In this document: positions 43,552 to 61,900 of the stretch, piece after piece
How the letters are laid out: every line of letters starts with the position of its first letter
Numbering within the stretch: position 1 is the first letter of the stretch
DNA from: Alkalispirochaeta sp.
Lineage (GTDB): Bacteria > Spirochaetota > Spirochaetia > DSM-27196 > Alkalispirochaetaceae
Assembly: GCA_965601925.1 (NCBI GenBank)
Contig: OZ271854.1
Span: 1,280,001-1,344,000, forward strand
Length of the DNA: 64,000 bases
Reading direction: 5' to 3'
Program-made: the position numbers and the translations under genes
The notes under the pieces: generated by a model
Told to the model about the DNA's origin: nothing
The model's database searches: none
Seen by the model: only the letters and a program-made list of their open reading frames with translations

Positions 43552-43977
43552 TCACATAGTTGGTGCCAGCCTGTACTCCTCGTACATCTGAATAAAAGCA
43601 TCGGTGACGTACCAATTGGCTGTGAGCGTATAGGTCTCTCCTTGCCGTGATAGCAGGGCGATGTACCCATGAGGCTCGTCGCCGACGGTCCAAGAGATCG
43701 TCAACGGTCGAAAAGATCGATCCGGGTCCGTGCTATACTCCCATATCCCCACAAACGGTCCATCCTCCGTTGTGATCTCCAGGACACCATCGCCCTTGAA
43801 CGATATGCTTCTCCCCACGGAGTCGCCGACGCCTTCAAGGGTCTGATCCAAGATCGACGCCGGTGCGACCAACTCTATAGCCCCTTCGGCCCGCGTCGTT
43901 GTCGACTGTTGGCTCACACACGCCCCTAATGCTGCGATAACGACGAACCCTATCGTCACACGTAACACCTGCTTCAT
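43552..43977 (-). CDS. Small hypothetical lipoprotein
   Basis: AGGAGG RBS, lipobox LGAC, AT-rich upstream region. Confidence 0.75.
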   Translation of the reverse strand: MKQVLRVTIGFVVIAALGACVSQQSTTTRAEGAIELVAPASILDQTLEGVGDSVGRSISFKGDGVLEITTEDGPFVGIWEYSTDPDRSFRPLTISWTVGDEPHGYIALLSRQGETYTLTANWYVTDAFIQMYEEYRLAPTM

Positions 43978-44098
43978 CTAATCCTCCTGAGGCTTCTTTT
44001 TATTAGATTACTGAAGTAATAGCAATATATTATCATATATCACTACTACTTCTTGCAATGTCCGCAACATCGTCGCCGAACTGCTCGGCGTGCTTGAT

Positions 44099-44188
44099 TT
44101 CCGTCGTTGTCCGCGTCGTCGTCCCACATCCGCATCCGGTGAAACGGTACGTCCATCATCGCAAGGCCCCGTCCCAGCCGCGCTTCGT
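44099..44188 (-). pseudogene. 90-bp stub of an orphan toxin cassette (cassette E)
   Basis: Matches 53012-53101 (EARLGRGLAMMDVPFHRMRMWDDDADNDG), then homology stops abruptly. Confidence 0.9.
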
Positions 44189-44553
44189 GTGTTCTCGGGC
44201 GCGTCTCCCCCAAGTTTCAGCCAGGGGACCGGCCGACGGTGTCGATCACTCAGCAGGAGGAACTTGGAGTCGCGCTCGCCACCGCCGTCCGTTCCCCTGC
44301 GGGTTCCAGCAGAGATGTTTCGTCCTCAGGTGATGTGTGGGGGAGACCGGGCTACGGGTTCCAATTCCTCAGCCCGGCTCGGTGTGGTGATAGGTGCTTT
44401 TACAGAAGTCGGACAGCTACATTTACACCGCGACGACCGCTGTTCGGCTCACTTCGGCCGCATACCCGAGCAGCACGCATTGCGTGCGACCAGGGGCCGA
44501 TCGCCAGCGGTCGTCGTCCGGGCCTGTGGGATTTCCTCCCTCCGCCCTCGCGC
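44189..44553 (-). repeat. Cassette leader element, copy E (core plus type-2 extension)
   Basis: The core is near-identical to 53102-53265. The extension is homologous to 49816-49979, with an extra insert in its hairpin loop. Confidence 0.9.
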
Positions 44554-44599
44554 TCGTTCTGTGGTGCAACAACCGTATGAGTGGTGCATCGCAGGTGGC

Positions 44600-45343
44600 T
44601 TACGGGAAGTCTCGCATACTTTCAGACCACTGATCGGGGTGTAACACGGGTCGCAATATCAAATCCCCTTCAAAATCATTCGTCGGATTCTCGATTGGCG
44701 AAATCATACGAAGCCAGAACTCATCGTCTCCATTGCGTTGATCGCGGATCACTTCTATGGTGAGCGCATCGGGTCCAAATGTTCCGTCGGTTTCCATTGT
44801 GTTTTCATCAACCCAACGAACCAAGTGAGTGCCTTGAGGCCAGAACGGCATATACCCATCGCTGATGCGTAAAACATAGTCCCATTCGCCCTCAAGATAA
44901 CGATACTCCGTCTGAAGCTCTTGATCTTGAGTATACCAGAAGCCCGAGAAATCAGGTTCATCCAAATCTTGAGAGTTTTCCGCTCGTCTCTGCGAACCAG
45001 AGAAATATCCTGCATTGAGATTATAGAATATGACACTTTGCCCATTATTGCGAAACTCATATCTGCTCGGATTGTCAAATTGTGCAAGTGATAATCGTAT
45101 GTTCTCATTCGTGTTATCATAATATGTCGTATATCGATCTAAGGCGAACCATCGTCCCTTAACCAATAGTGTTGCCTGATCACGTTCCGGTAGTGCTCGG
45201 AACGTAATCGGATGATCAGGTAACGGCACCAAATCGATATTCTGTACTCCCCACCCGTGCTCAAGGAGATACTCCGTCCGGTCTTGCGCCGGTACACAGG
45301 CAATGCATACAAACACCATGATACCCATCAACATCTTCTGCAT
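44600..45343 (-). CDS. Putative immunity protein (exported/lipoprotein), allele 2
   Basis: Immediately after the toxin-tip stop. Leader MQKMLMGIMVFVCIAC. Paralogue of 47259-48011. AT-richer than the flanks. Confidence 0.75.
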   Translation of the reverse strand: MQKMLMGIMVFVCIACVPAQDRTEYLLEHGWGVQNIDLVPLPDHPITFRALPERDQATLLVKGRWFALDRYTTYYDNTNENIRLSLAQFDNPSRYEFRNNGQSVIFYNLNAGYFSGSQRRAENSQDLDEPDFSGFWYTQDQELQTEYRYLEGEWDYVLRISDGYMPFWPQGTHLVRWVDENTMETDGTFGPDALTIEVIRDQRNGDDEFWLRMISPIENPTNDFEGDLILRPVLHPDQWSESMRDFP

Positions 45344-45357
45344 CTGATCTATCTCCC

Positions 45358-45824
45358 TCAATATCCCGGAACCGTCGGGACCCCATTCGGAACGCTCCAA
45401 TCAATTGAATACTCCAACGGATCCCATGGCATCGCCGGTTGGGGTGTACTCGGCGACACAATAAAGAAATCAAATCGGTGGATCTCGTCCAACCGCACCT
45501 CCGTCCGGTCCGATCCATGTGACGACGGACTTTGATACGGATTCATCAGCTCAATGATCAACTCCCCGTCCTCATCCAGACGGAATCCACTCATCATCGT
45601 CGAATGGTGACTCTCGCCCGATTGGGTACTGTTTAGTCGCACGTGCGCCACAAACGCATTCGTGGAGCGATCCATCCCGTTCAGCAAATCGATCGTTACC
45701 TCCGCACCCTCAAACACTTCCTGAAAGTTGAACCGATCCCCCGTCAGCAGCTCCATCGACTCCTCGACCGTGAGGAGCGTATCGTCGCTGAACGCACCCT
45801 CCTCGCGCAGTCGATTGTTCGCTT
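45358..45824 (-). pseudogene. Truncated duplicate of the papain/C39-like toxin tip
   Basis: Near-identical to 48026-48490. Cut by the IS so that the GYGC (predicted catalytic Cys) segment is missing. Confidence 0.88.
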
Positions 45825-45841
45825 TGACCTGCCCCCTGAAA

Positions 45842-46642
45842 CTAGACCACTGCTTGAGTGAGTCCGTCCTCAAAGCTTCGCCAGATTTCTTCCGGCGTGT
45901 GATTGCCAAGCGAGCTGTGTGGCCGGTACCGATTGTACTCATCGCGCCACAAAGCCAGTTTCTCCTGAGCGTCCCTCACGCCCAGGAACAGGTTCTCGTT
46001 GAGGAACTCGTCGCGTAGCTTTCCGTTGAAGCTCTCGACAAAGGAGTTCTCGATCGGCTTGCCCGGCGTGATCAGACACTGCTGAATGCCGCGCTGGATC
46101 GTCCACGCGATCATGGCCCGGGACGTGAACTCCGGCCCGTTATCACTCTTCAAACATTCCGGCTCACCGTGCATGATCATCGATTGCTCCAACGCCCGGA
46201 TGACATCAGCGCTCGAACATGAACGAGCAATTCGTGCTGTGATCAGATACCGTGTGTACTCGTCCAACACGACCAGACACTTCAACGACCGTCCGGATTC
46301 AGTCGTGTCGAAAACGAAATCCAATCCCCAGATCTGATTGGGCCGCATCGCTGCACTGGCCCTATTGCGCTGCACGATGAGCTTCTTCCGGCGTCGTGAG
46401 CGGAGCATCAACTGTTCCTCGCGATAGATCCGGTACACTTGCTTGTGATTCGCTTCACTATGGTCTCGCCGCAGTAACACGTGGATCCGACGATACCCGA
46501 ACCGCTTGTGCCTCTCGGCCAGTTCCTTGATGCGCGCCCGAATCCGAAGATCGTTCGGGTTCTTTGCCTCATACCGACATGTCGATCGATGCAGCGACGC
46601 CAGTTCGCACGCTCGTCGCTCACTGACCCCATGGTGTTTCAA
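45842..46642 (-). CDS. IS3 transposase OrfB (DDE integrase core)
   Basis: GYRRI, NHK, WGLDF, SDNGPEF, GKPIENSFVESFNGKLRDE, YNRYRPHSSL. Probably fused to OrfA by a programmed frameshift. Confidence 0.95.
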   Translation of the reverse strand: MKHHGVSERRACELASLHRSTCRYEAKNPNDLRIRARIKELAERHKRFGYRRIHVLLRRDHSEANHKQVYRIYREEQLMLRSRRRKKLIVQRNRASAAMRPNQIWGLDFVFDTTESGRSLKCLVVLDEYTRYLITARIARSCSSADVIRALEQSMIMHGEPECLKSDNGPEFTSRAMIAWTIQRGIQQCLITPGKPIENSFVESFNGKLRDEFLNENLFLGVRDAQEKLALWRDEYNRYRPHSSLGNHTPEEIWRSFEDGLTQAVV

Positions 46643-46677
46643 CGCCCCGACAGCCGATCGTCGCTGATGAGGCGTCG

Positions 46678-46941
46678 TCAGTTTTTTGACAGCACCTCCT
46701 TCATCGCGTCGATCTCAAGCGCCTGGTTGGCGACCAGCCTTTTCAGTCTGGTGTTCTCGTCTTCCAGTTCTTTCAGTCGTCGCGCCTCGCTGGTTGTCAT
46801 TCCGCCATAGCGAGATTTCCACCGGTAAAACGTATTCTCCGCAAACCCGTACTTCCGACAGATCTCCTTCGCCGGAACACCGGACTCGGCTTCCCCCAAG
46901 ATCGCAATGATCTTCTCAACCGAATACTGACCCTTCTTCAT
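46678..46941 (-). CDS. IS3 transposase OrfA
   Basis: HTH plus leucine zipper (TFYRWKSRYGGM..RLKELEDENTRLKRLVA). An AAAAAAC slippery-type run lies at its 3' end (46681-46687). Confidence 0.93.
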   Translation of the reverse strand: MKKGQYSVEKIIAILGEAESGVPAKEICRKYGFAENTFYRWKSRYGGMTTSEARRLKELEDENTRLKRLVANQALEIDAMKEVLSKN

Positions 46942-47012
46942 GTTGTCTCTCCCTCCTATTATACCGGGAAAAACTCACCTTCTTGCTGGACCAGTTTTGT
47001 GGGAGCAGGTCA

Positions 47013-47077
47013 CCACCGCATAGTCGACCGCCGCGCCGACCGCATTCGCTCCCAGGCTCACCAGTGAGTTCACCGCA
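47013..47077 (-). pseudogene. 65-bp 5' stub of orphan cassette D (beta-type module)
   Basis: Matches 52406-52470 (AVNSLVSLGANAVGAAVDYAV). Truncated by the IS. Confidence 0.88.
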
Positions 47078-47078
47078 T

Positions 47079-47185
47079 AAGGATTTGGACACGTCTCCCG
47101 ATGTATCATGAGAGGGAGCGGCGAACGGCGCCGGTCACTCAGCAGGAGGAACCTGAAGTCGCGACCGTCACCGCCCGCCGCTCCC
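47079..47185 (-). repeat. Cassette leader element, divergent copy D (core only)
   Basis: Retains TCACTCAGCAGG, GAAGTCGCG and CGTCTCCC. The stem arms have changed in sequence but remain complementary. Confidence 0.85.
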
Positions 47186-47258
47186 AGCTTTGCATGTGGG
47201 CGTGTCTTATTCTCGGATTAGATAACAGAGTTTGAGGAAGCAGGATTCTTTGGGCAAT

Positions 47259-48011
47259 CTACGGGAAATCTCGCATGGTTTCAGACCGTTGATCGGGATG
47301 CAACACAGGGTGCAATATCAAGTCGCCTTCAAACGCGTTCTCAGGATTCTCGATTGGCGAGACCATACGCAACCAGAACTGGTCTTCTCGCATCATCCGA
47401 TGCTCTTCGATCACCTCAAACACGATGCGGTTCCCAAATGTATCGTCGGTTTCCAACGTGTTCTCGTCGATCCATCGTACGAGATGGGTTCCTTTGGGCC
47501 AAACTCCGGGATGTCCGTCAGCGACAGATAGAGCAAAATCCCAATGCTCCGAGGAGTCAACATAACGATATTCTCTAAACATATCTGGCGATTCCGAGCT
47601 TTGCCAAACACCTTCTAGTGTTAAATTATCCAATGCTGCATCATTATTCTCTACTTTTATGAAATAGCCTGCTAATATATTGAAACGAGCAAGGGTTAAC
47701 TGCAAAGCCCGACCTTCATTCAGAAGCTCGTATCCTAAAGAGTTTGGATCATTGCCTATCGGTTCAATTTGAGTGTCCGTTATAGAATAAGTTTGATAGT
47801 CATTCTCTAGATGAGAAAACGATGCTTTTATGACTTGACGATCATTAACATATTCTGGCAACGACCGAAACGTAATCGGCTGATCAGGTAACGGCACCAA
47901 ATCGATATTCTGTATTCCCCACCCGTGCTCAAGGAGATACGCCGTTCGGTCTTGCGCCGGTACACAGGCAATGCATACAAACACCATGATACCCATCAAC
48001 ATCTTCTGCAT
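47259..48011 (-). CDS. Putative immunity protein (exported/lipoprotein), allele 1
   Basis: Starts 15 bp after the cassette C stop, with a GGAG RBS. Leader ending CIAC. AT-rich middle. Confidence 0.78.
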   Translation of the reverse strand: MQKMLMGIMVFVCIACVPAQDRTAYLLEHGWGIQNIDLVPLPDQPITFRSLPEYVNDRQVIKASFSHLENDYQTYSITDTQIEPIGNDPNSLGYELLNEGRALQLTLARFNILAGYFIKVENNDAALDNLTLEGVWQSSESPDMFREYRYVDSSEHWDFALSVADGHPGVWPKGTHLVRWIDENTLETDDTFGNRIVFEVIEEHRMMREDQFWLRMVSPIENPENAFEGDLILHPVLHPDQRSETMRDFP

Positions 48012-48025
48012 CTGATCTATCTCCC

Positions 48026-49666
48026 TTAATATCCCGGAACCGTCGGGACCCCATTCGGAACGCTCCAATCAATTGAATACTCCAACGGGTCCCATGGCAT
48101 CGCCGGTTGGGGTGTACTCGGCGACACAATAAAGAAATCAAATCGGTTGATCTCGTCCAACCGCACCTCCGTCCGGTCCGATCCATGTGACGACGGACTT
48201 TGATACGGATTCATCAGCTCAATGATCAACTCCCCGTCCTCATCCAGACGGAATCCACTCATCATCGTCGAATGGTGACTCTCGCCCGATTGGGTACTGT
48301 TTAGTCGCACGTGCGCTACAAACGCATTTGTCGAGCGATCCATCCCGTTCAGCAAATCGATCGTTACATCCGCACCCTCAAACACTTCCTGAAAGTTGAA
48401 CCGATCCCCCGTCAGCAGCTCCATCGACTCCTCGACCGTGAGGAGCGTATCGTCGCTGAACGCACCCTCCTCGCGCAGTCGATTGTTCGCCTCAATACCG
48501 GTCATGTCGTCACCGGTCATCGCGTTCGCCGCATACAAGGCACTATACAACACGCATCCGTATCCACCTAATGAGACAAACGGTACCTCGCCTTCGTAGC
48601 CATATTCTCGACTTACAAATGCTCTGTTGTCAGGGTCGGTAGCGAACTCCTCAAACTCCTCGCGACTCAGGCTGCTCTCAAATTCAGAGAGATTACCCTC
48701 AAAGTTAGGACCAGCTTCACGTTGAAGGAACCGATTATACGCATCATCTATCCGTTGTTCGTTGATCTGGTCTACGGTTTCACGGCTCAACGCCTCGCCC
48801 AACGCTTCCCGCCAGTTCGCCGCATCGCTCTGATACTCGCCGGCCGTATTCAACTCAGGGAAGAAATGATCCATCGGCCCTTCATTCGGTCGGTAGTTCT
48901 CCGGGTTCAAGAGCCCCGCCACAATCGCCTGCCCAAACGCCTCGTTCCCTTCCAGTCCCCACGCATCCATCAGGTTTCGGTACGTCTCTCCCGTTCGCCG
49001 GTACGCACTCGCCTCCGTCGTCTCGCCCAATACCGCGCGCTCCACCAGGTGCGTCGCTTCATGCGCCATCGCACTTCCCAACATCGCCGAGCTCTCCCGG
49101 TCGTTCCCCGTCAATGCTCGCGACAACACGATCGTGTCCGGGTTGTCCGAGTCATACCGTCCGTACTCGCCCTCCGCCATATCGTCAAACTCACTCTTAA
49201 TCCGTCGCTCCCACACCGCACCCGCTAAGGCCGTGTCGCGTCGGTCCCGGCTGTACGATAACGTGTTCGCCGCATTCAGGATCGCTCGGTTCTCCACACC
49301 CCGTTGCGTCCCCAACGCGCCGCCGACCTTCGCACTCGTCACCCGTACCACATCCGATAATCCTTCCAGGCTCGTCGCTACCAGGTCCAGTCCGACGTCG
49401 TATCCGCCGCTCCCCACGTTGAACAACGCACCGCCTCCGCCAAGGTCCATCTGCAGCACGCCCGCCGATAACTCGTTCCCCTTCTCGTCGGTGATCCCCA
49501 GCATCCGCCCCATGTTTACCACGTTCAGCGATGCGCTCCCGTCGATCGCGTACTCCGTCGCCGCGCCAATCGCACTCGAGGTGATCGTCGCCGCGCTCCG
49601 TAATGCATCCAAGTTAAAAGTATTCTCCGCGAGGGCATCGCCGATCCCGTCGGTCGTTAGACGCAC
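48026..49666 (-). CDS. Orphan toxin cassette C: alpha module (HEATH) plus papain/C39-like peptidase tip
   Basis: 49002-49650 is near-identical to 60133-60781 of the main toxin. The tip has GYGCVLYS...HHSTMMSG...LMNPY, a Cys-His-Asn order like papain-fold peptidases. Whether it has a real start is uncertain. Confidence 0.75.
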   Translation of the reverse strand: MRLTTDGIGDALAENTFNLDALRSAATITSSAIGAATEYAIDGSASLNVVNMGRMLGITDEKGNELSAGVLQMDLGGGGALFNVGSGGYDVGLDLVATSLEGLSDVVRVTSAKVGGALGTQRGVENRAILNAANTLSYSRDRRDTALAGAVWERRIKSEFDDMAEGEYGRYDSDNPDTIVLSRALTGNDRESSAMLGSAMAHEATHLVERAVLGETTEASAYRRTGETYRNLMDAWGLEGNEAFGQAIVAGLLNPENYRPNEGPMDHFFPELNTAGEYQSDAANWREALGEALSRETVDQINEQRIDDAYNRFLQREAGPNFEGNLSEFESSLSREEFEEFATDPDNRAFVSREYGYEGEVPFVSLGGYGCVLYSALYAANAMTGDDMTGIEANNRLREEGAFSDDTLLTVEESMELLTGDRFNFQEVFEGADVTIDLLNGMDRSTNAFVAHVRLNSTQSGESHHSTMMSGFRLDEDGELIIELMNPYQSPSSHGSDRTEVRLDEINRFDFFIVSPSTPQPAMPWDPLEYSIDWSVPNGVPTVPGY

Positions 49667-49979
49667 CTCCCCCGAGTTTCAGTCAGGGGGACCGGACGGC
49701 GGTGTCGATCACTCAGCAGGCCCTTCGGGCCAGAAGTCGCGCTCGTCACCACCGTCCGTTCCCCAGCGGGTTCCAGCAGAGATGTCTTGTCCTCAGTGAT
49801 GTGAGGTGGGAGACCGGACTACGGGTTCCAATTCCTCGGCCCGGCACGGTGTGGTAATAAGTGCTTTCTACAGAAGTCGGACAGCTGCAGTTACGCCACG
49901 ACGACCGCTGTTCGGCTCACTCCCGATCGCCGGCGGTCGTCGTCCGAGCCTGGAGGATTTTCTCCTTCCACCTTCGCGC
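49651..49979 (-). repeat. Cassette leader element, copy C (core plus type-2 extension)
   Basis: Shares the core hairpin and invariant motifs with the other copies. Extension hairpin CGACGACCGCTG...CGGCGGTCGTCG. Confidence 0.9.
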
Positions 49980-50106
49980 CTCGGCGAGTTGTGCAGCGTT
50001 TGATTCACTCACGCGTTGACGCGCCATGGCGTTCTGTCTTGTTCTTTCAAAAACGGCATGTGGTCCCCCTCCTCCACGATGAGGTTCTGGACACCACACC
50101 CACAGG

Positions 50107-50649
50107 TCAGGGAACGTCATCCCGGGTGATTTCAGTAACCACCGCGTCGATAATCAAGAGGTCTTCTGTTGTAGGTAGCAGCACTTCTATCTGCTCTGCC
50201 GTCACCGTGAAAGTAAAAAACCGTTCCGGCCCTACCTCGTTGCTTACTTCGGTGCCGAGAAACTGAAACAAATAGTACACCGTCATCACTCTTTCGGCAC
50301 GTTCAATGTGCTGCACTTCCGTTCGTGCCGCGCTACTCGCATACTCAACGTATCGAATGCCGGTCTCATCGAGGTAAAACGTTCCAAAATAGAACCCATC
50401 TTCGTCTTCTACGTCGATTGCTGAAAGGTCCGGTATCACCGCGAACAACTCATCGAGTGTTCTCGGCTCCACCGGTTCCTGCACTTCGGAAACAGACTCC
50501 TCAGCCTCCGCCGGTACCGGATCGGCGGTCATGACCTCCCGTGCCGATTCCTCCCGCGCACTTCCGCAACTCCATGCTACGAGAAAAAGGAGCACCACCA
50601 GACTCATCCTCACGACCATCATTCCGCGACTGGTTTGAACGTTTACCAT
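50107..50649 (-). CDS. Putative immunity lipoprotein for cassette B
   Basis: The start overlaps the toxin stop (ATGGTAA). Lipobox-like VAWSC. Confidence 0.78.
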   Translation of the reverse strand: MVNVQTSRGMMVVRMSLVVLLFLVAWSCGSAREESAREVMTADPVPAEAEESVSEVQEPVEPRTLDELFAVIPDLSAIDVEDEDGFYFGTFYLDETGIRYVEYASSAARTEVQHIERAERVMTVYYLFQFLGTEVSNEVGPERFFTFTVTAEQIEVLLPTTEDLLIIDAVVTEITRDDVP

Positions 50650-53126
50650 CGTGGTCTGAACTCCCAGTGCAAGTGCGGTCCCGTCGAGTTTCCGGTATTC
50701 CCCACGTTCCCAAACTGGTATCCCGGCGGGAGGGTGAATCGGTAGATGTCCGTCGCCCGCGCCGCTTGAAGCAGATCGTTGAGTTGGTTCGAGGCACGCG
50801 TATTAGGCTGCAAATGCCCATAGATCATATCGAAGTCGGGCGTCCTGGTTCGCAGATTCAACCCATACCCGGCACTCGGATCATTTGGGTTATCCCACCC
50901 AAGCGGATTCATGCCCACTATCACCGTCTCCTCCTGTGTCGTAAACAACGGATGGTTCTGTCCAAAGGTCCTGAGATCTATTGCCTCACCACCGCCCCAG
51001 CCATGCTCACGGCCATCCTCGTAAAGGGAGAATGTCGAAATGTCATCTCTTCCTTGAATCGGATCGATCACTCGCCCATCGCCGATTAACTCATACATCG
51101 GGTTGTTGTTGTCCAGGCTCCACTCGTCCCGGATTCGACCGAACGCCTGTGCAACGTCGTCTTGCGAGTACTGTTCGTTTCGCTCTGCGTCCAGCAACCC
51201 CGGTGCTCCGAACGACCCGTACCGCTGTCCATACAACGCCGCGTCGTACTCCTGGGCAAATCCCTCCATCGAGTTCGCCGCCTCGTACTGCGCCGCAATC
51301 TCCGGTGTCATCGTACCGTTCCGCAGCGCCGTCATGAAGTCAGTCTCGGCGCTCTCTTGCGCCGCATTCACCGCAGCTACCATGCTCCCACCGAACGCAC
51401 CTACGTTGTCGATGTAGTCCCGCTGCATGAAGTATCGCGCCTTGAAGGCTGCTCCCGGATCAAGGGTATGATCTGCGTCGTTCTTCACGTCCGTCGCCCC
51501 TCCGTTGGTCGTGAACGTCCCGTTCTCATACGTCCACCCGGCGTCGATCATCATCTGGTTCGCCTCGGCCTCCGTGATTCCCAAATGCTCGGCAAGCGAC
51601 GCCGCATAGCCACCCTCTCCCTCAAACTCTCGAAGGAGTTCGTCATTCTCGTCGTATACGCCTTTCCGGCCGTCAAAGATCAACTCGCCTTGTGCGGTGA
51701 GTTTCCAATAATCCGCACTCGAATCATACGCCGTGGCCGCATACGCCGCAAAGTCCCCCTGGCCCGCCTGCGCCTTGAGGTACTGGTTGACGTCCTCGGC
51801 AAGGTTCGCGTCGTTCATGATGAAGTCCATCCCATACGTCTCCGCAGCACGCATCGCAAACTCCGTATGGCCCGTCACCGCGCTCACCGTCTCCGCGTTG
51901 TCCCCGTCCGCGATCCCGTCTCGGTAGCTCTCATGACTCAGCACACTCGCCGCCACCAGCTGCTCCTCCAAACTATCCCCGATCGCTCCCAGGTAGATGT
52001 CCTTCCCATTCCCTCCCGCAATCGTCTGCGCGCGTGCTCCTTCGCTCCCCGGTGCCCCGGTCAGGTGTAGCCGGTCCACTCCCTCCAGGATGTTCCCGTA
52101 AGTACTTCGCTCCCCGCGCTTCCCAAAGCTCCATGTGGCGCGTAACGTGTTCTCCGCCGCGGCGTTGTGCGTGTTCTCCTCGATGTATCGGTCGATCCGG
52201 GCCCGCTGGTGTAGGACGTTCGCTCCCATCATTCCGTTCGCCACCAGGTCGACCCCGATGTCGTAGCCGCCGCTTCCCACGTTGAACAGTGCGCCGTTAC
52301 CGCCCAGGTTCATCTCTAACGCACCCGCCGAGAGGGCGTTCCCCTTCTCATCTTCGATTCCCAGCATCCGGCCCACGTTCAATACGTTAATCGCCACCTC
52401 GCGATCCACCGCATAGTCGACCGCCGCGCCGACCGCATTCGCTCCCAAGCTCACCAGTGAGTTCACCGCACCCATGTGCTCCCGGGAGAATCCCGCCAAG
52501 TCGTCCATCTTCGCCAAACTCCCGAAACCGGACTGCGCCAACCCTTGCGCCGCGCCGCCGGCGTAGCCCGCTACCGCACTCTCGCCGAAGGTCGATCGGC
52601 GGAAGCCCCGTTCGTCAAAGTCCATGTCAAAGCTCGCGTCGATCGAGAATGAGTTGATCGCGCTGCTCATCGCCGTCGTCGCTACCGCCTGCGTCGTGCT
52701 CACCCCCACGTTCACCGCCGTCTGCGTGATCGCTCTGCTGCCGTCGACCGCCTTGCCGGCAAGCGTTCCCAACTGGTCGAATCCCTTCGCCATCCCGGCG
52801 CTCGCCAGGCTCACTGCCGTGCTCTTCGCAAAGCTCCCCAACGCGTCGTCCGCGTCCGCGTATCCCGTCGCGATGTCCGTCACCGTAAACGCCGCATTCG
52901 TCGCGATCGTTGCCGCCAACGATACGCCCGCTCCCGCTCCCAACGTCGCCACCGAGACCACCACTCCCGTTACCGTCACGATGTTCGGGGCGCCGAACAG
53001 TCCGTCCGGACTTCCGTCGTTGTCCGCGTCGTCGTCCCACATCCGCATCCGGTGAAACGGTACGTCCATCATCGCAAGGCCCCGTCCCAGCCGCGCTTCG
53101 TGTGTTATCGGGCGCGTCTCCCCCAA
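50643..53126 (-). CDS. Orphan toxin cassette B: core fragment, beta module and M23-like peptidase tip
   Basis: 52536-53101 matches main toxin 60813-61378, and 51738-53101 matches 55782-57145. Tip motifs H..AIDLR, YGHL, GNVGNTGNSTGPHLHWE. Confidence 0.82.
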   Translation of the reverse strand: MGETRPITHEARLGRGLAMMDVPFHRMRMWDDDADNDGSPDGLFGAPNIVTVTGVVVSVATLGAGAGVSLAATIATNAAFTVTDIATGYADADDALGSFAKSTAVSLASAGMAKGFDQLGTLAGKAVDGSRAITQTAVNVGVSTTQAVATTAMSSAINSFSIDASFDMDFDERGFRRSTFGESAVAGYAGGAAQGLAQSGFGSLAKMDDLAGFSREHMGAVNSLVSLGANAVGAAVDYAVDREVAINVLNVGRMLGIEDEKGNALSAGALEMNLGGNGALFNVGSGGYDIGVDLVANGMMGANVLHQRARIDRYIEENTHNAAAENTLRATWSFGKRGERSTYGNILEGVDRLHLTGAPGSEGARAQTIAGGNGKDIYLGAIGDSLEEQLVAASVLSHESYRDGIADGDNAETVSAVTGHTEFAMRAAETYGMDFIMNDANLAEDVNQYLKAQAGQGDFAAYAATAYDSSADYWKLTAQGELIFDGRKGVYDENDELLREFEGEGGYAASLAEHLGITEAEANQMMIDAGWTYENGTFTTNGGATDVKNDADHTLDPGAAFKARYFMQRDYIDNVGAFGGSMVAAVNAAQESAETDFMTALRNGTMTPEIAAQYEAANSMEGFAQEYDAALYGQRYGSFGAPGLLDAERNEQYSQDDVAQAFGRIRDEWSLDNNNPMYELIGDGRVIDPIQGRDDISTFSLYEDGREHGWGGGEAIDLRTFGQNHPLFTTQEETVIVGMNPLGWDNPNDPSAGYGLNLRTRTPDFDMIYGHLQPNTRASNQLNDLLQAARATDIYRFTLPPGYQFGNVGNTGNSTGPHLHWEFRPRW

Positions 53127-53370
53127 GTTTCAGCCAGGGGACCGGCCGACGGTGTCGATCACTCAGCAGGAGGAACCTGAAGTCGCGCTCGCCACCGCCG
53201 TCCGTTCCCCTGCGGGTTCCAGCAGAGATGTTTCGTCCTCAGGTGATATGTGGGGGAGACCGGGCTCTCCGGGGCTCCGCGGCTGAATCGGCGGGCTACA
53301 CGGTACGCCCGCCTGCCGCTCCGGTCTCACGAAGTGAGACCCACTTCGCGGCCCCTTCGATCCCTCGCGC
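53102..53370 (-). repeat. Cassette leader element, copy B (core plus type-1 extension)
   Basis: Outer IR GTCTCCCCCA (53116) / TGGGGGAGAC (53251) and inner hairpin 53137-53210. The extension is near-identical to 57796-57905. Confidence 0.92.
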
Positions 53371-53559
53371 TTGTTAACGGATGTATTGTCTACGGAAGCA
53401 GCAGGTTGCCGCAGGAGCGTTGTAACACAGGCAATAGCGGATTGGTGGAACAACGCCATGTTTAGTATCACGGCGAGGCGAGACTGTGTCGAGAAAGCAC
53501 CTTGGTGCATTCCCGTTTCTACCAATCACCTGGTTATTGTTGTCATTTCGCCTTAGATA

Positions 53560-54600
53560 CTACGGTCTCTCCTCAGGGGCCAATGCTTGATACTGCACCG
53601 GTCCTGTCGACAAAACCGAACCATCCACAATCCGGCGCTCCAACTCAAACACTTCGCCAATCTCGTATCCCTCACCGAATCCCTCGCTATCCATAGCATA
53701 CACGACTGTGTCGTAATGCTCAGTTGGATCCTCGTCAACAAAGCCGTAGATATAGATGATTGATTGTCTATTTGGCATTCGAAGTACGTTTCGCGTACTC
53801 CAGGTCGCCGTGTTTTCATTGAGAAATAGGAATTGTCCCCCGGGACTTACTTGAAGGATTGTAGGATTGAGATGAAGATGCCCACTGTATACCTGAATGC
53901 TGGGCAGGACATGGGCCGTCGAACCATCCGGTCTATACAGTCGTAGATCGGACGGATCGGTTGGGTCTGTTCCATCCGACGCTCCTATTCCCACAATGTA
54001 CTCACCCCATTGTTCCCAGTCGTAGAAGCTCTCGTTCCTAACGTTCCGTCCCCGGTAAAAGTCGTTTATTGCGATCCGCGCTAACGTTTCGGAATAAGGC
54101 CTAGGCGTTCTTGGTGTTATAGCCGCACGTTGTTCCCGAACTATAATCGGTGTAGTCGGATAAACCGCACCGCTCTCAATCGAATAGACAAACCGCTCAT
54201 ACTCACGTCGAACGCCTGTGGGTGCGGAAGCGTCGATCTCGAATACTACCATAGGAGAGAAAAACATCGACTTGTTATCCCTAGACGGAGTGAGAGAAAC
54301 ACCGAATACTTCGTCGTATGACGCTACTCGTACGACGGTCCCGGCAATGAGGTCCGCCACGAATATGTCGATATTCTGAAGATCTGCTCCCCGTCGTTCC
54401 TCCACGACTTCTCGTATCGGTATGACCAGACGATGATCGTCCAGCCACAGATAGCGAGGTCTTATCTCAGACGCTCCGACAACACTATCAGATACATGCA
54501 CCGCATACTGTAATGCAAGGTACTTTTCGTCCGTAGGCTGCGCGTTTGCCGTTGGTGCGAGCGCCGCCATCAAGGCGACGATTATCCCTACGACTGCCAT
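53560..54600 (-). CDS. Putative exported immunity protein for cassette A
   Basis: Overlaps the cassette A stop. Signal peptide MAVVGIIVALMAALAPTANA|Q. Exact start uncertain. Confidence 0.72.
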   Translation of the reverse strand: MAVVGIIVALMAALAPTANAQPTDEKYLALQYAVHVSDSVVGASEIRPRYLWLDDHRLVIPIREVVEERRGADLQNIDIFVADLIAGTVVRVASYDEVFGVSLTPSRDNKSMFFSPMVVFEIDASAPTGVRREYERFVYSIESGAVYPTTPIIVREQRAAITPRTPRPYSETLARIAINDFYRGRNVRNESFYDWEQWGEYIVGIGASDGTDPTDPSDLRLYRPDGSTAHVLPSIQVYSGHLHLNPTILQVSPGGQFLFLNENTATWSTRNVLRMPNRQSIIYIYGFVDEDPTEHYDTVVYAMDSEGFGEGYEIGEVFELERRIVDGSVLSTGPVQYQALAPEERP

Positions 54601-57600
54601 AGGTTGTGTATATTTCTCATAATCAACTCCATTGCCCAGTCGCTCGCCTCGGGCGTGACGAACTGATCGTCCATCCACGGTATGAGTGAGTGTATATCAT
54701 TTCCGTTCTGTCGGTAGAGATCGATAATCGTATTCGGCATCATCCTGTTAGTCTCATGTCCCCCAAAGATCTTGGACCATGATGTCTCCGGATGCGTACT
54801 AAGAGTAGGATATGTAATGGTAGGGTCTTGCGTTGCCCAAGTGTTCTCGATTGGATCAACTAAAACGTTCGTGATGAAGTCCAAATGTGGTCCGGTAGAC
54901 TCGGCTCCGGTGTTGCCGATACTGCCGATTCTCATTCCCGCCGGCACGCCACTCAATCCTCGCCCCGTTGCGGTTACCCCCCTCGTGCCGAAGACTCCTA
55001 AGTAGTCCATGATGGTGTTCCCGTGGAGGTGGGAATACTGCCCTTGCACTGTCGCGCCAGTCGATATCGTTTGTAAGCCAAAGATCGGATCATCTTGCAA
55101 CTCGACGTGACTCTCTTCCCGCGACCGCACTCCCACTTCACCCCCGGTATACCGGCTGCCGTCCTCTCGATACACCGCAAAGTCTGCGCCCTCGTGATAG
55201 CGATTTGTTGGCTCACCGTGCCGATTCAACCGGAACCGGTGTCCTTGCGGCGAAGTCAACAGCGTATGGTCCCCCTCGCCAGGATAGATGATCGGGTCGC
55301 TCGGATCAAATGGCCCGACATTCGCGTCGTTCTGTATCAGCAAACCGCTACTCTGTGCCGCCACCAACGCCTGGTCCAATGTCGATATCCCTGCGTCCGT
55401 GACGCCGTTCCGCATCAAGTTATCGGCTATCCGCGACACATCCGCGAACTTCTCAGTCCCAGACCGGAATCGTAATAATGTATCCGCGTGCCGACTTGTG
55501 TCCGGTCCCATTCGAAACACACCTGGCTCCGTTGCTGGCGCGTCGGTCACCGCGTCCGCCACCAGATCTATGATCGTCTCGTCCATGTCCTCGTGACGCA
55601 CCCGCCCGTCTTCGGTCAGACCGCTCCCATTTCGACGCAATGCTTCTTCTACCGCCGCTCGCTTGTCCGGCGAAAGCGCACTCAGGTCAAAATCCAGATT
55701 TCCATCTTCCTGCCAGCCCCATTCACCATTCTCATCCTGCACCAACGCCCAGAAGTCCTGGTCCGATCGGTACGCCTGCGTCGCATACGCCGCAAAGTCC
55801 CCCTGGCCCGCCTGCGCCTTGAGGTACTGGTTGACGTCCTCGGCAAGGTTCGCGTCGTTCATGATGAAGCCCATCCCATACGTCTCCGCCGCACGCATCG
55901 CAAACTCCGTATGGCCCGTCACCGCGCTCACCGTCTCCGCGTTGTCCCCGTCCGCGATCCCGTCTCGGTAGCTCTCATGACTCAGTACACTCGCCGCCAC
56001 CAGCTGCTCCTCTAAACTATCCCCGATCGCTCCCAGGTAGATGTCCTTCCCATTCCCTCCCGCAATCGTCTGCGCGCGTGCTCCTTCGCTCCCCGGTGCG
56101 CCGGTCAGGTGCAGCCGGTCCACTCCCTCCAGGATGTTCCCGTAGGTGCTCCGCTCCTCGCGCTTCCCAAAGCTCCACGTGGCGCGCAACGTGTTCTCCG
56201 CCGCAGCGTTGTGCGCGTTCTCCTCGATGTATCGGTCGATCCGGGCCCGCTGGTGTAGGACGTTCGCTCCCATCATCCCGTTCGCCACCAGGTCGACCCC
56301 GATGTCGTAGCCGCCGCTTCCCACGTTGAACAGCGCACCGTCACCACCCAGGTTCATCTCTAACGCACCCGCCGAGAGGGCGTTCCCCTTCTCGTCTTCG
56401 ATCCCCAGCATCCGGCCCACGTTCAGCACGTTAATCGCCACCTCACGGTCCACCGCGTAGTCGACCGCCGCGCCGACCGCATTCGCTCCCAAGCTCACCA
56501 GTGAGTTCACCGCACCCATGTGCTCCCGGGAGAATCCCGCCAAGTCGTCCATCTTCGCCAAACTCCCGAAACCGGACTGCGCCAACCCTTGCGCCGCACC
56601 GCCGGCGTAGCCCGCTACCGCACTCTCGCCGAAGGTCGATCGGCGGAAGCCCCGTTCGTCAAAGTCCATGTCGAAGCTCGCGTCGATCGAGAATGAGTTG
56701 ATCGCGCTGCTCATCGCCGTCGTCGCTACCGCTTGCGTCGTGCTCATCCCCACGTTCACCGCCGTCTGCGTGATCGCTCTGCTGCCGTCGACCGCCTTGC
56801 CGGCAAGCGTTCCCAACTGGTCGAATCCCTTCGCCATCCCGGCGCTCGCCAAGCTCACCGCCGTGCTCTTCGCAAAGCTCCCCAACGCGTCGTCCGCGTC
56901 CGCGTATCCCGTCGCGATGTCCGTCACCGTAAACGCCGCATTCGTCGCGATCGTTGCCGCCAACGATACGCCCGCTCCCGCTCCCAATGTCGCTACCGAG
57001 ACCACTACTCCCGTTACCGTCACGATGTTCGGGGCACCGAACAGTCCGTCCGGACTTCCGTCGTTGTCCGCGTCGTCGTCCCACATCCGCATCCGGTGAA
57101 ATGGTACGTCCATCATCGCAAGGCCCCGTCCCAGCCGCGCTTCGTTCCGATAGAAGTCTTCCATGATCCGGCCCATCTCGCCGTAGCCCGCTTCCTGCAC
57201 TCGCTCCGGGTCGTCGCTCTTCATCACCGGTGCGTAGCCGACGTGGAAGTTGAATAGTCCCTCCGTGTCGTGGTGCAGGTACTCCTCCTCGCCGCTCTCT
57301 TCATTCTCCCGCGTTCGGTCGTAGCCCGCAGCGTGCGTCCAGCTCGCCTCGACCGCCGCAAAGCGCTCTTTGAGCTCGCCGTTCAGCTCTTCGACGCTGG
57401 TCGCCGCGGTCCCGTCGTCCTTCTGGTCGTCGCTCCGTCCAAAGATCAGGATCTGATATCGCTCCATCTCTTCGTACGCCGCCGCGATCATCGTCTGGAT
57501 GCCTCGGCTCGACAGGCCGTCCAACGACTCCTCCGAGAGGTCCACCTGGGGTGCAAAGACCGGCGCCGTAAAGTCATCATACGTTCCCGCCGTCTGCGTC

Positions 57601-57631
57601 TCCCGTTCGATTCCTCCCATCAGCGTCTCGT
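54588..57631 (-). CDS. Orphan toxin cassette A: long core fragment, beta module and M23-like tip
   Basis: 56580-57631 matches main toxin 60813-61864. Tip motifs HEGAD, YSHL, GNTGAESTGPHLDF. The frame stays open into the leader element (to 57728), but there is no evident native start. Confidence 0.82.
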
Positions 57632-57905
57632 GGGACTTCGGGCGCGTCTCCCGCTCGTTCAACCAACGGAACGACCGGCGGTGTCGATCACTCAGCAGGC
57701 CCTTCGGGCCAGAAGTCGCGCTCGCCACCGCCGTCCGTTCCAGGCAGGATGAAGCAGGGGGTGTTTCGTCCTTATGATAGGTTGGTGGGGGAGACCGGGC
57801 TCTCCGGGGCTCCGCGGCTGAATCGGCGGGCTACACGGTGCGCCCGCCTGCCGCTCCGGTCTCACGAAGTGAGACCCACTTCGCGGCCCCTTCGATCCCT
57901 CGCGC
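57632..57905 (-). repeat. Cassette leader element, copy A (core plus type-1 extension)
   Basis: Core hairpin GGAACG...CGTTCC with the invariant motifs. The extension contains GGTCTCAC-gaa-GTGAGACC and GGCGGGC..GCCCGCC hairpins. Confidence 0.92.
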
Positions 57906-57925: not shown

Positions 57926-58256
57926 TTATGTGAGCCGTGCCATCGTGGCTACACGCCAAACCGAGAGGCGATGGTAGCCCGACCAGTGCTTTCGGGTCTT
58001 CATCATCATTACGAGCAACTTGCGACGTGAGGCTTCGTCTGTTTTTCGCGGCTTCTCATGACCGCTCGGAGGTAGTGGTGTGTCGTGCAGGTCGACGAAC
58101 TCGTGGAGCATTGCACGAGGCCGCCTCATTTGACATACCACAATGCCCGCGGAACGTTTCGTCGGCTTTCATTTCCACAAACTGCTCGCTCATCCCAGTC
58201 GTTCCACCTCGGTGCTCGTCGTTTTATCACTCAGATGAGGTTTTGGACCCCCACGC
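57926..58256 (+). mobile_element. Decayed IS remnant (integrase-core transposase C-terminus and right-end-like motif)
   Basis: The + frame ends ARPVLSGLHHHYEQLAT*, resembling the LGGLHHxY tail of rve-type transposases. GATGAGGTTTTGGACCCCCAC at 58234 resembles the ends of such elements (from recall, unverified). Confidence 0.5.
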
Positions 58257-58531: not shown

Positions 58532-58951
58532 CTATTTTTGACCGTCTTCTGGAATACGTATACCGTACTCTTCCAGCCTTAGAATATCTTCTCTTGTTGC
58601 TTCTCGATACGTGTTACCAGGGAACTCGCCAGGCCCACTTATCTGTGTAATCTCGATTTCTCCATCATTCATGGATTGCTGAATTGAGTTCAATCCCCCC
58701 GTAGGACTTACATGGTAAATCACACCAGAGTCTGATGTAGCACCGATAGCCACTGAATAGCTATCCCATTCGAGGTCTACGAGCACTACAAACCAGTAGT
58801 TATCAAACTGCCTCAAAATAAGAAACTGTGGAATGAAACTCCCAACATTCCTAGTAGATAGCGTCCAGACACCACCCAAATCATCATTCTGGGCGCTAAG
58901 AGTCGCAACAAATGCAAAAGAGACTATTAGTACAATGATTACTTTCTTCAT
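58532..58951 (-). CDS. Putative exported immunity protein for the main toxin
   Basis: Starts 14 bp after the toxin stop, with a GAGAGGA RBS. Signal peptide MKKVIIVLIVSFAFVATLSA|Q. AT-rich. Confidence 0.8.
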   Translation of the reverse strand: MKKVIIVLIVSFAFVATLSAQNDDLGGVWTLSTRNVGSFIPQFLILRQFDNYWFVVLVDLEWDSYSVAIGATSDSGVIYHVSPTGGLNSIQQSMNDGEIEITQISGPGEFPGNTYREATREDILRLEEYGIRIPEDGQK

Positions 58952-58964
58952 CTTTATCCTCTCA

Positions 58965-61900
58965 TTAATGTTCCCAGGGTCGGGCACTCCAGTGCCGCCA
59001 CGAACGGAATAGATTGATTTCCCAACCGGTTATGTTACCACCATCATCATACACTGGATCATACCTTGTGCCGGGAAACTGCGATCCATCAAACCACCCT
59101 TCTCCGGTTTGAGGATTAGTGAAACCTGGTCCATGTTCCGGATGATTCCATATTCGTTCATGGTGTGCGTGAGCACCGCTCCCAGTGCCATGCAAACTAG
59201 TTGGAAAAGGTGCAATCTGCTCACCGGCTCCTATGATATCCCCAATGGCATGTCCTACTAAATCATCCGGATTCATATGCAAGATACGATCGGCATAACT
59301 CGTTCCTAAGACACTCAACAGAATCCCGTCCGTTGCATCCGCTCCCGGTATCACTTGTGCATAGCCAGGAGCAAATACTCCGATACCACCGGCCGTATCG
59401 ATTGCCGGATGTGCATAGTCCAGCCGCGCGGGACCTTGGATGTCAATCATCTGGCGCTCTGTGCGGAACCCTTGTGTAATCTCGGCTTCGGGTGTCACCC
59501 CCATGCTCGGCAACAAATACTGCTCGTTGTATGTTCCCATGCGCTGCTGCACGTCGCTCCACACCGCATTCGCCATCTGATAATCGCCATTCACCACCAA
59601 CTCTTCATACGCATTCAAAAGCCCGTCAATGGCGTCCCGTTCCGCTACCTGTTCCGTGATTCTGTCGCTCTCCTGGAATACCAACGACTCCTCAAGGCTT
59701 CGTGGGTTCCCGGCGGACGTCACGTACTCTTGTCCGTTCCACTCCGCGCCGGACGACGTCATCAGCGCATACGCCATGTCGGCGTCCGTCATATTCATGA
59801 CCTCTTCAGCGGGATATCCCGCCGCGACCAGATGGGCCACCGCATTACCCTCACCGACGTACTCCAACAGCGACTCACTGTATCCTAACTGGTGTCCTGT
59901 TTCGTCTACCGCAACATCGATAACGCGCCCAGTATCGGCATCGCGTAATGCTCGCTCTCCATTCCAGGTGATCCTCCCATCACGATGACGCGAAAAGTAG
60001 TCCACCGGTCCTCGATTGGGGAGGTAATTCTCAGGATTCCGTAACGCATCCTCAATCGCTTGTGAGAAATCCGCATCACCCTCCAACCCAAAGACATCCT
60101 TCAAGCGCTCGTATGTCTGCAGTGTTCGATTATACGCACTCGCCTCCGTCGTCTCGCCCAATACCGCACGCTCCACCAGGTGCGTCGCTTCATGCGCCAT
60201 CGCACTTCCCAACATCGCCGAGCTCTCCCGGTCGTTCCCCGTCAATGCTCGCGACAACACGATCGTGTCCGGGTTGTCCGAGTCATACCGTCCGTACTCG
60301 CCCTCCGCCATATCGTCAAACTCACTCTTAATCCGTCGCTCCCACACCGCACCCGCTAATGCCGTGTCGCGTCGGTCCCGGCTGTACGATAACGTGTTCG
60401 CCGCATTCAGGATCGCTCGGTTCTCCACACCCCGTTGCGTCCCCAACGCGCCGCCGACCTTGGCACTCGTCACCCGTACTACATCCGATAATCCTTCCAG
60501 GCTCGTCGCTACCAGGTCCAGTCCGACGTCGTATCCGCCGCTCCCCACGTTGAACAACGCACCGCCTCCGCCGAGGTCCATCTGCAGCACGCCCGCCGAT
60601 AACTCGTTCCCCTTCTCGTCGGTGATCCCCAGCATCCGTCCCATGTTTACCACGTTCAGCGATGCGCTCCCGTCGATCGCGTACTCCGTCGCCGCGCCAA
60701 TCGCACTCGAGGTGATCGTCGCCGCGCTCCGTAATGCATCCAAGTTAAAAGTATTCTCCGCGAGGGCATCGCCGATCCCGTCGCTCGTCAGGAAGTTCCC
60801 CACCATGCCGTTCGCCAACCCTTGCGCCGCGCCGCCGGCGTAGCCCGCTACCGCACTCTCGCCGAAGGTCGATCGGCGGAAGCCCCGTTCGTCAAAGTCC
60901 ATGTCGAAGCTCGCGTCGATCGAGAATGAGTTGATCGCGCTGCTCATCGCCGTCGTCGCTACCGCCTGCGTCGTGCTCACCCCCACGTTCACCGCCGTCT
61001 GCGTGATCGCTCTGCTGCCGTCGACCGCCTTGTCGGCAAGCGTTCCCAACTGGTCAAATCCCTTCGCCATGCCCGCGCTCGCCAGGCTCACCGCCGTGCT
61101 TTTCGCAAAGCTCCCCAACGCGTCGTCCGCGTCCGCGTATCCCGTCGCGATGTCCGTCACTGTAAACGCCGCATTCGTCGCGATCGTTGCCGCCAACGAT
61201 ACGCCCGCTCCCGCTCCCAACGTCGCTACCGAGACCACCACTCCCGTTACCGTCACGATGTTCGGGGCGCCGAACAGTCCGTCCGGACTTCCGTCGTTGT
61301 CTGCGTCGTCGTCCCACAGCCGCATCCGGTGAAACGGTACGTCCATCATCGCAAGGCCCCGTCCCAGCCGCGCTTCGTTCCGATAGAAGTCTTCCATGAT
61401 CCGGCCCATCTCGCCGTAGCCCGCTTCCTGCACCCGCTCCGGGTCGTCGCTCTTCATCACCGGTGCGTAGCCGACGTGGAAGTTGAATAGTCCCTCCGTG
61501 TCGTGGTGCAGGTACTCCTCCTCGCCGCTCTCTTCATTCTCCCGCGTTCGGTCGTAGCCCGCGGCGTGCGTCCAACTCGCCTCGACCGCCGCAAAGCGCT
61601 CTTTGAGCTCGCCGTTCAGCTCCTCGACGCTGGTCGCCGCGGTTCCGTCGTCCTTCTGGTCGTCGCTCCGTCCGAAAATCAGGATCTGATATCGCTCCAT
61701 CTCTTCGTACGCCGCCGCGATCATCGTCTGGATGCCTCGGCTCGACAGGCCGTCCAACGACTCCTCCGAGAGGTCCACTTGGGGTGCAAAGACCGGCGCC
61801 GTAAAGTCATCATACGTTCCCGCCGTCTGCGTCTCCCGTTCGATTCCTCCCATCAGCGTCTCGTCGATAATCACGCGTCGTTGCCACTCCATTCCTTGAC

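Follow-up and report, generated by a model that had tools for sequence, protein, structure and literature searches.

A folded, strand-specific repeat at the seams of orphan toxin arrays in a spirochaete order

Background

In the arrays of contact-dependent growth inhibition (CDI) and Rhs toxins, a full-length toxin gene and its immunity gene are followed by truncated modules of toxin tip and immunity gene with upstream homology of variable extent, and recombination at conserved coding sequence has been invoked for them; transposon-like sequence has been noted at one of the junctions (Poole et al. 2011, PMC3150448). Herein we analyse an array of the same build in a 64,000-nt stretch of DNA from Alkalispirochaeta sp. 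(assembly GCA_965601925.1, contig OZ271854.1, positions 1,280,001 to 1,344,000), hereafter the window, to which plain coordinates refer; C1 marks coordinates of the complete 5.05-Mb host genome, called G000, and other G numbers denote other genomes of the sample. Unlike the arrays described in the available part of PMC3150448, in which no recurring folded element is described at orphan heads, the orphan modules of the window are each headed by a copy of such an element.

Among folded repeats, REPs are thought to depend for their movement on an enzyme of single-stranded DNA (ssDNA) that acts in trans and cuts at a defined position relative to the hairpin foot (PMC6006769), and NTS/dRS3 of Neisseria affects the integration of transforming ssDNA (PMC11893778). 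As to the origin of orphans, homology explains swaps among existing cassettes, and not the variable non-homologous joint at the 5' end of a module.

Results and discussion

The element and its copies in the array

The window holds part of gene A, one of three paralogous giant genes of about 3100 aa in the host genome (A, C1:1338965-1348417; B, 4152466-4161678; C, 4315336-4324689), which have near-identical N-termini and are internally mosaic. The long conserved protein, the variable C-terminus, the small variable downstream genes and the orphan modules fit the architecture of a polymorphic toxin system, by which the giant genes are assigned as putative toxins with putative immunity genes. Behind gene A follow five copies of the element, e57, e53, e49, e47 and e44 (Table 1). 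An earlier note, made from the letters of the window, had claimed them in one orientation, and this was confirmed: TCACTCAGCAGG occurs at 44246, 47135, 49709, 53159 and 57688, and G(A/G)AGTCGCG, also claimed there, is present 20-24 nt downstream of it in all five. Each copy was likewise found to lie between a putative immunity gene and the 5' end of a truncated giant-gene copy, which it abuts: past the junction, e57, e53, e49 and e44 continue into sequence with 97-99% identity to gene A, and e47 into sequence of the same identity to orphans T1/T2. The (GT)CTCCC/GGGAGAC bracket exists in four copies, its far half being gone from e47, and the core model has no match inside the intact toxin gene, where the element had been said to be absent. 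A 12-mer identical to the 3' end of e57 does lie in the intact gene at 63492-63503, with no known breakpoint there, and is probably due to chance.

The core of about 145 bp that the earlier note had delimited is a real inner part; the true unit is larger, and extends between the two arms of a closing stem, P1 (GCGCG/CGCGC). By the element we mean this P1-to-P1 unit on the toxin-sense (minus) strand, which measures 259-413 nt across the host genome and 259-355 nt in the window, and in which one of two kinds of outer arm (type-1, type-2) surrounds the core. Pairwise core identity of the window copies is 61-98%, and the core model, built from these same copies, scores them at E values of 1e-16 to 1e-30.

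Fold and strand

The element is a folded, covarying structure on one fixed strand. In the core, 90% of the alignment cells are paired, with double changes at 12 of 38 pairs (0 of 500 shuffles), and in the family skeleton 93% are paired, with double changes at 14 of 28 pairs and with P1 100% paired and itself bearing double changes, where both structures were drawn from the sequences tested, so that the slide control is inflated. As for the strand, the non-Watson-Crick pairs on the toxin-sense strand are G·T in 45 cases versus A·C in 10, and the folding z score of e53 is -4.5 on the minus strand versus -1.6 on the plus strand. Moreover, hairpins closed by cGNAg triloops number 9 versus 1 and 7 versus 0 on the folding and the other strand, and 7 versus 3 in full copies of the host genome, and many family members have an internal loop with GNA on both sides. 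Such triloops, in which N may be any base, and internal loops of the GNA/GNA kind belong to the motifs of DNA and are stable in ssDNA; DNA is therefore favoured over RNA, which suggests that ssDNA is the working form of the element.

A structured RNA would be the alternative here, namely a co-transcribed 3' element acting as ribozyme or as handle for a reverse transcriptase (RT), the cassettes being cDNA whose synthesis is primed at the element, with homology serving to resolve them. The folding strand is indeed that of the toxin mRNA, wobble pairs of the G·U type are just as much a feature of RNA, GNRA-type loops occur in some copies of the genome G028, and in two genomes of different genera (G032, G048) copies lie in sense between nrdA-like and nrdB-like genes. 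However, the host genome has no RT, the Rfam covariance models gave no match at E<=1 in the window between 43000 and 64000, the folding strand is antisense to the abutting gene at most dispersed sites of the host, and the loops just described are of the DNA type, which altogether makes an RNA improbable in our view. Resemblances to introns of groups I and II, RNase P, hammerhead ribozymes and primosome assembly sites found no support and were dropped.

Junctions with the toxin sequence

Past P1, toxin sequence resumes after 10 nt at e57, at e53/e44 and at copy B3, after 8 nt at e49 and after 11 nt at e47, these being the five distinct breakpoints mappable in the host, while on the toxin side the breakpoint varies among codons ~2184, 2346 and 2542 of gene A and 2254 of gene B. 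The corresponding offsets are 11 and 16 nt in G017 and 11 and 17 nt in G028, and should be taken as maxima in case the donor allele was unlike the present reference. No pairing of the spacer with an internal guide was found in three copies inspected by eye.

The start of orphan T3 is 98% like gene A and 74-77% like the cassette ahead, so that this joint was not made by homology with the neighbouring cassette. A circle recombining between neighbours by one crossover cannot account for such identities, and an upstream homology anchor together with a non-homologous joint at the element end fits them. In addition, some cassettes must have spread by copying, because identical breakpoints recur (e53/e44, and four of five in G017).

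Distribution in the host genome

Fifteen full cores are present in the host genome, five at locus A, three at locus B, one at locus C and six elsewhere; nine of them (not independent copies) thus fall at three toxin loci that make up 1.1% of the genome. With partial copies included there are 26 dispersed intergenic loci, next to genes which we take from their translations to be fusA, ilvD, guaA and the like. The element is enriched at toxin loci and is not confined there. Accordingly, the dedicated leader at every orphan that the earlier note had proposed cannot be upheld, given these roughly 26 loci and the ordinary intergenic sites in which most of the listed matches of the relatives lie. 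Nor is the role that of a leader only. At locus B, orphans follow two of the copies and an unrelated open reading frame (ORF) of 275 aa follows the third; the immunity gene of locus C is trailed by two degenerate cores behind which no orphan lies, and copies are placed in the same trailing manner in G019 and at the end of the G017 array. As copies can end a toxin-immunity pair without an orphan behind, the element is no less a trailer than a leader.

At the dispersed loci of the host, a convergent ORF stop lies near the element 3' end in many cases (<=70 nt at 16 of 24 loci, <=30 nt at 15) and a co-oriented stop on the 5' side at 9 of 24, counts that come without a null model in a genome where long spurious ORFs are common at 60% GC. 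Such figures bear on a passive explanation, in which a REP/MITE-like repeat (MITE, miniature inverted-repeat transposable element) would insert into dispensable DNA, or cause deletions beside it, as a passenger or as portable homology, with no special role in tip loading. Broken toxin alleles would then be kept for a useful immunity gene, and stacked by homologous recombination between elements. The convergent stops are what selection against gene damage would give, and most copies are dispersed; moreover the identical breakpoints recur, the copy in G009 lies between RHS pieces with about 127 codons missing relative to the G017 gene, and the array of G030 has another repeat. On the contrary, every toxin-associated copy examined has the same orientation with its 3' end facing the toxin, uninterrupted toxin sequence flanking a copy on either side of it was never seen, the copies of any one array diverge from each other by 20-40%, and the placement recurs in two unrelated toxin families. 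We regard the passive explanation as unlikely, albeit with some weight, and the same holds for the stacking of broken alleles that it entails.

The family in related genomes

The sample of the order comprises 99 genomes including the host, and the family searches used sequence-only skeleton models, by which distant members are missed. The core model matches only in G009 among the 98 other genomes, and a degenerate copy in G019 trails homologues of the toxin and of I1; homologues of the giant gene are found in 20 of the 98, and two complete genomes have orphan arrays of it. With the skeleton models 13 and then 40 of the 99 genomes were matched, whereas beyond the order 1 of 150 genomes of the phylum was matched, weakly. 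The outer-arm model matches in 5 of 16 congeners, and this patchy presence fits a mobile element.

The link to the building of cassettes, as supposed in the earlier note, is borne out by relatives. In the complete genome G028, a repeat of about 200 nt homologous to the type-1 outer arm of the host, with a short hairpin in place of the host-type core, heads three of four giant-gene orphans, and an RHS array of this genome contains an orphan headed by a fourth copy. G017, also complete, has six copies in one RHS array, of which five head truncated RHS modules and the last closes the array, and G009 has one copy between two RHS pieces. Further copies lie 3' of apparent tip-immunity pairs in G012, G015 and G036, as judged by ORF appearance only. 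Since orphan junctions are marked in other genomes and in the unrelated RHS family, the tie to toxins is not a local accident.

Several other placements were observed. A family copy lies just 5' of an nrdB-like gene in G032, G048 and G022 (two genera), in the first two with the nrdA-like gene in front, and may be an old or co-opted insertion. Tandem duplication of the 3' terminal segment of the element, seen at L226, L220, L212 (G069) and L177 (G044), suggests that this end is recombinogenic. In G009 a type-2 outer-arm fragment adjoins a tRNA-like gene (L131:3940-4110). Outside the order sample, the core pattern hit 21 loci in viral contigs, none of them a real copy by covariance model, and three further family patterns gave none there; pattern searches hit 32 loci in the genome collection with 1 real copy, and 7 in metagenomes with 3 real ones, all of which are the G009 copy and are counted once. 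BLAST against plasmids and phages returned no copy.

A displacement mechanism and its weighing

The reading that we favour, and to which we give an even chance, is that of a homology-anchored displacement of toxin tips, for which the 3' end of a non-autonomous ssDNA element provides the non-homologous joint. Among the cassette signals that the earlier note had listed, the folded ssDNA site and the tip-displacing non-autonomous element fit best, while the canonical attC and the leader RNA are disfavoured. The element would be a mobile repeat of this spirochaete order, acting as folded ssDNA of fixed strand, and its 3' end about 10 nt past P1 would be the joining end, a role suggested by the pattern in which this end is fused to unrelated downstream DNA. 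At the start, one copy would stand behind the resident toxin-immunity pair. Incoming DNA of a relative, carrying the conserved toxin body, a new tip, a new immunity gene and the element, would recombine by homology on its 5' side, and its element end would be joined further down the resident toxin gene. The full-length gene would thereby acquire the new tip, the old tip together with its immunity gene would be pushed downstream as an element-headed orphan, and repeated rounds would give an array with the last copy trailing the locus. The processing enzyme would act in trans, either as a structure-guided ssDNA nuclease or strand-transferase, or as a nuclease that stops at the protein-bound fold and is followed by microhomology joining. 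In this way the element may let these free-living spirochaetes gain a new toxin tip yet keep the old one with its immunity gene. We count in favour of displacement the terminal copies without an orphan (loci B and C, G019, G017), and the same placement in the unrelated RHS arrays (5 of 7 fragments in G017, one in G028, one in G009).

A number of observations weigh against displacement and are gathered here. The junction offset varies by genome and has no single fixed base; 10 of 22 copies have an A at +11, often within CTA or TTA, with an uncorrected p of 0.006, a signal that becomes weak once the 14 positions are corrected for. Most family matches, among the matches listed, are outside toxin genes in ordinary intergenic sites, and the 18:8 leading/lagging-strand bias of the dispersed copies is not significant (p 0.08). 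Arrays lacking the element, which the earlier note had named as contrary evidence, exist in part: two of seven RHS fragments in G017 and one of four giant-gene orphans in G028 are without it, and G030 has a homologous giant-gene orphan array with no family match at any orphan. Neither an empty site nor a tip-swapped allele was observed, the four sequence runs being contigs of one sample, whose joints can reveal neither circles nor exchanged tips.

The search for an enzyme belongs to the same side of the balance. The earlier note had seen no recombinase in the window, and searches of the whole host genome likewise found no cognate enzyme: there is no match to Y1, to RT (PF00078, 0 matches), which the handle of a group II intron, retron or DGR would call for, to IS110 or to Rpn, and no small GIY-YIG protein, the lone match being in a frame of 607 aa, about the size of UvrC. 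The two broken remnants of IS91/ISCR-like Y2 transposases, which have a similar downstream end (C1:3753892-3755261 and 3626441), are not flanked by the element. Among the relatives, Y1 genes occur in 32 of the 99 genomes of the order, none beside a copy among the copies listed. A search for GIY-YIG in five genomes gave frames of 563-686 aa and a contig-edge fragment in G009, none of them small and repeat-flanked, and no copy lies beside the other tyrosine recombinases of the host (XerC/XerD-like and two more).

An intact integron integrase IntI does exist in the host (TIGR02249, 401 bits; C1:3568284-3569585), with attC sites upstream and related attC copies away from it (C1:2185016-2199779 and 3734245-3738715). 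The element could then be an atypical integron-type site, whose folded strand IntI would recombine in trans into attG-like genomic sites. One strand folds better, as this would have it, AAC stands directly 5' of P1 in four of eight copies, a type-2 outer-arm fragment lies just 3' of an integrase-like gene end in G023 (L132:340-560), and IntI occurs in 8 of 9 genomes with a toxin-locus element versus 37 of 99 of the order, a lead only, where kin are not independent and three of the nine loci were assigned by ORF appearance only. Against it, the GTT of a closing R box 3' of P1 is absent in seven of the eight copies, the fold is branched, and the breakpoints are opposite to the AAC end, the other strand there reading GTC, GTT or GTA/GTG with no uniform GWT. 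Furthermore the true attC family of the host (9 BLAST hits) is unrelated to the element and absent from the toxin loci. An integron-type site is accordingly quite improbable.

To return to displacement, G030 invites a wider and more tentative thought. Its array (C1:1016328-1046250) holds an unrelated composite element, of which all six genome copies are in the array and five head orphans; it consists of a left hairpin, a cargo (an Rpn/YhgA-like gene or a HicA-containing pair) and a second repeat on the right. It is possible, though less likely than not, that a family of large branched ssDNA signals is a general capture end across toxin families, which with an undiscovered structure-guided enzyme would make the non-homologous joint when C-terminal tips are displaced and so build up orphan arrays that preserve immunity, and that this second element with its Rpn/HicAB cargo plays the same role. 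An Rpn/YhgA-like gene also stands directly before the first giant-gene orphan in G028 (G028:C1:1415153-1416073), as in G030, and a hairpin related to the G030 element lies 3' of an RHS tip and a small gene in G038.

The host locus

The features of the array are listed in Table 1. NCBIfam has no match for giant genes A or C, and M23-like similarities are the sole domain hints; for the C-terminus of gene A such a likeness comes from Atlas features and is a lead only. An efflux/secretion-like gene cluster neighbours the giant gene at locus A. More copies of the IS3-family insertion sequence are present elsewhere in contigs of the same sample. The 14-bp motif of the type RTCCARAACCTCAT is also found 3' of the immunity genes at loci B and C (C1:4143071 and 4314052), and these motifs are possibly scars of older junctions.

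Table 1. Elements, orphan modules and neighbouring features of the array in the window
Feature	Position	Strand	Description
e57	57632..57905	-	type-2 outer arm and core, with P1 arms at 57901-57905 and 57642-57646; 10-nt spacer, then orphan T1
e53	53102..53370	-	type-2 outer arm and core; 10-nt spacer, then orphan T2
e49	49653..49979	-	type-1 outer arm and core; 8-nt spacer, then orphan T3
e47	47078..47246	-	core without its outer arm, which is lost; 11-nt spacer, then toxin fragment of 65 bp that IS3 has cut
e44	44189..44553	-	type-1 outer arm and core; 10-nt spacer, then 93-bp toxin fragment, breakpoint as in T2
Gene A, 3' half	58965..64000	-	intact giant gene, 3150 aa, runs to C1:1348417; polymorphic C-terminus
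I0	58532..58987	-	putative immunity, 151 aa, N-terminal hydrophobic signal; function proposed from position
T1 orphan	54588..57631	-	begins at codon ~2184 of gene A
I1	53560..54678	-	putative immunity; homologue 3' of toxin homologue in G019
T2 orphan	50643..53101	-	begins at codon ~2346; C-terminal weak Peptidase_M23 match, E 4e-4, under cut-off
I2	50107..50649	-	putative immunity lipoprotein
T3 orphan	48026..49652	-	begins at codon ~2542, in A-type middle segment not common to T1/T2
I3	47259..48068	-	putative immunity
IS3-family element	45842..47012	-	interrupts fourth orphan; left end approximate
T3-like tip remnant	45358..45942	-	with I3-like immunity gene I4 (44600-45400); block 44600..45942
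Array end	43552..44188	-	93-bp toxin fragment (44096-44188); the last gene (43552-43977) is lipoprotein-like, 141 aa
Motif RTCCARAACCTCAT	58235..58248, 50079-50092	-	resembles 3' end of e47

Conclusions

To sum up, the element constitutes a structured repeat family that is new and is reproducibly tied to the seams of polymorphic toxins, and the proposed mechanism is plausible. It is undescribed in the literature searched, which left most subscription papers and supplements outside its scope. The 5' joint of orphans here carries a definable cis element; it occurs with toxins of two families unrelated to each other, a fold is predicted for it, and its junctions fall in a narrow window. Since a cis element stands at the joint, displacement is directly testable by mutation. 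The element might also serve as bait for an ssDNA-processing enzyme. Even if it is passive, there would be an order-wide structured repeat family, unmatched in Rfam and in the literature searched.

As regards known systems, REP/BIME with TnpA-REP (RAYT) and the IS200/IS605 ends resemble the element as dispersed extragenic repeats with a fold on one strand; REPs are simple hairpins of 21-65 nt with a GT[AG]G guide and REPtron organisation (PMC6006769), whereas the element is a branched fold of 130-415 nt without a conserved guide or a flanked Y1. NTS/dRS3 of Neisseria with Ssn is alike as a strand-specific folded repeat clustered at variable genes, but NTS measures 28 nt, lies on the flanks of a small GIY-YIG gene and is cleaved 5' (PMC11893778), while the junction of the element is 3' of the fold. 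The integron attC/attG is alike as a structure-defined, strand-selective ssDNA site at cassette boundaries (PMC8946536; 10.1101/2022.09.11.507474). In contrast to attC, the element lacks paired R''/R' boxes (AAC/GTT) and is branched, not a single imperfect hairpin. In one-ended rolling-circle capture by IS91/ISCR, a fixed element end is joined at variable positions and the product is then resolved by homology; the IS91-like remnants of the host have their own unrelated ends, and the element has no transposase inside or beside it. Of the features of a MITE, the terminal inverted repeat is a 5-bp stem only. Altogether, the element may be likened in its working to folded sites of the REP, NTS and attC type and in its outcome to the orphan arrays of Rhs/CDI, and it falls outside each of these named families.

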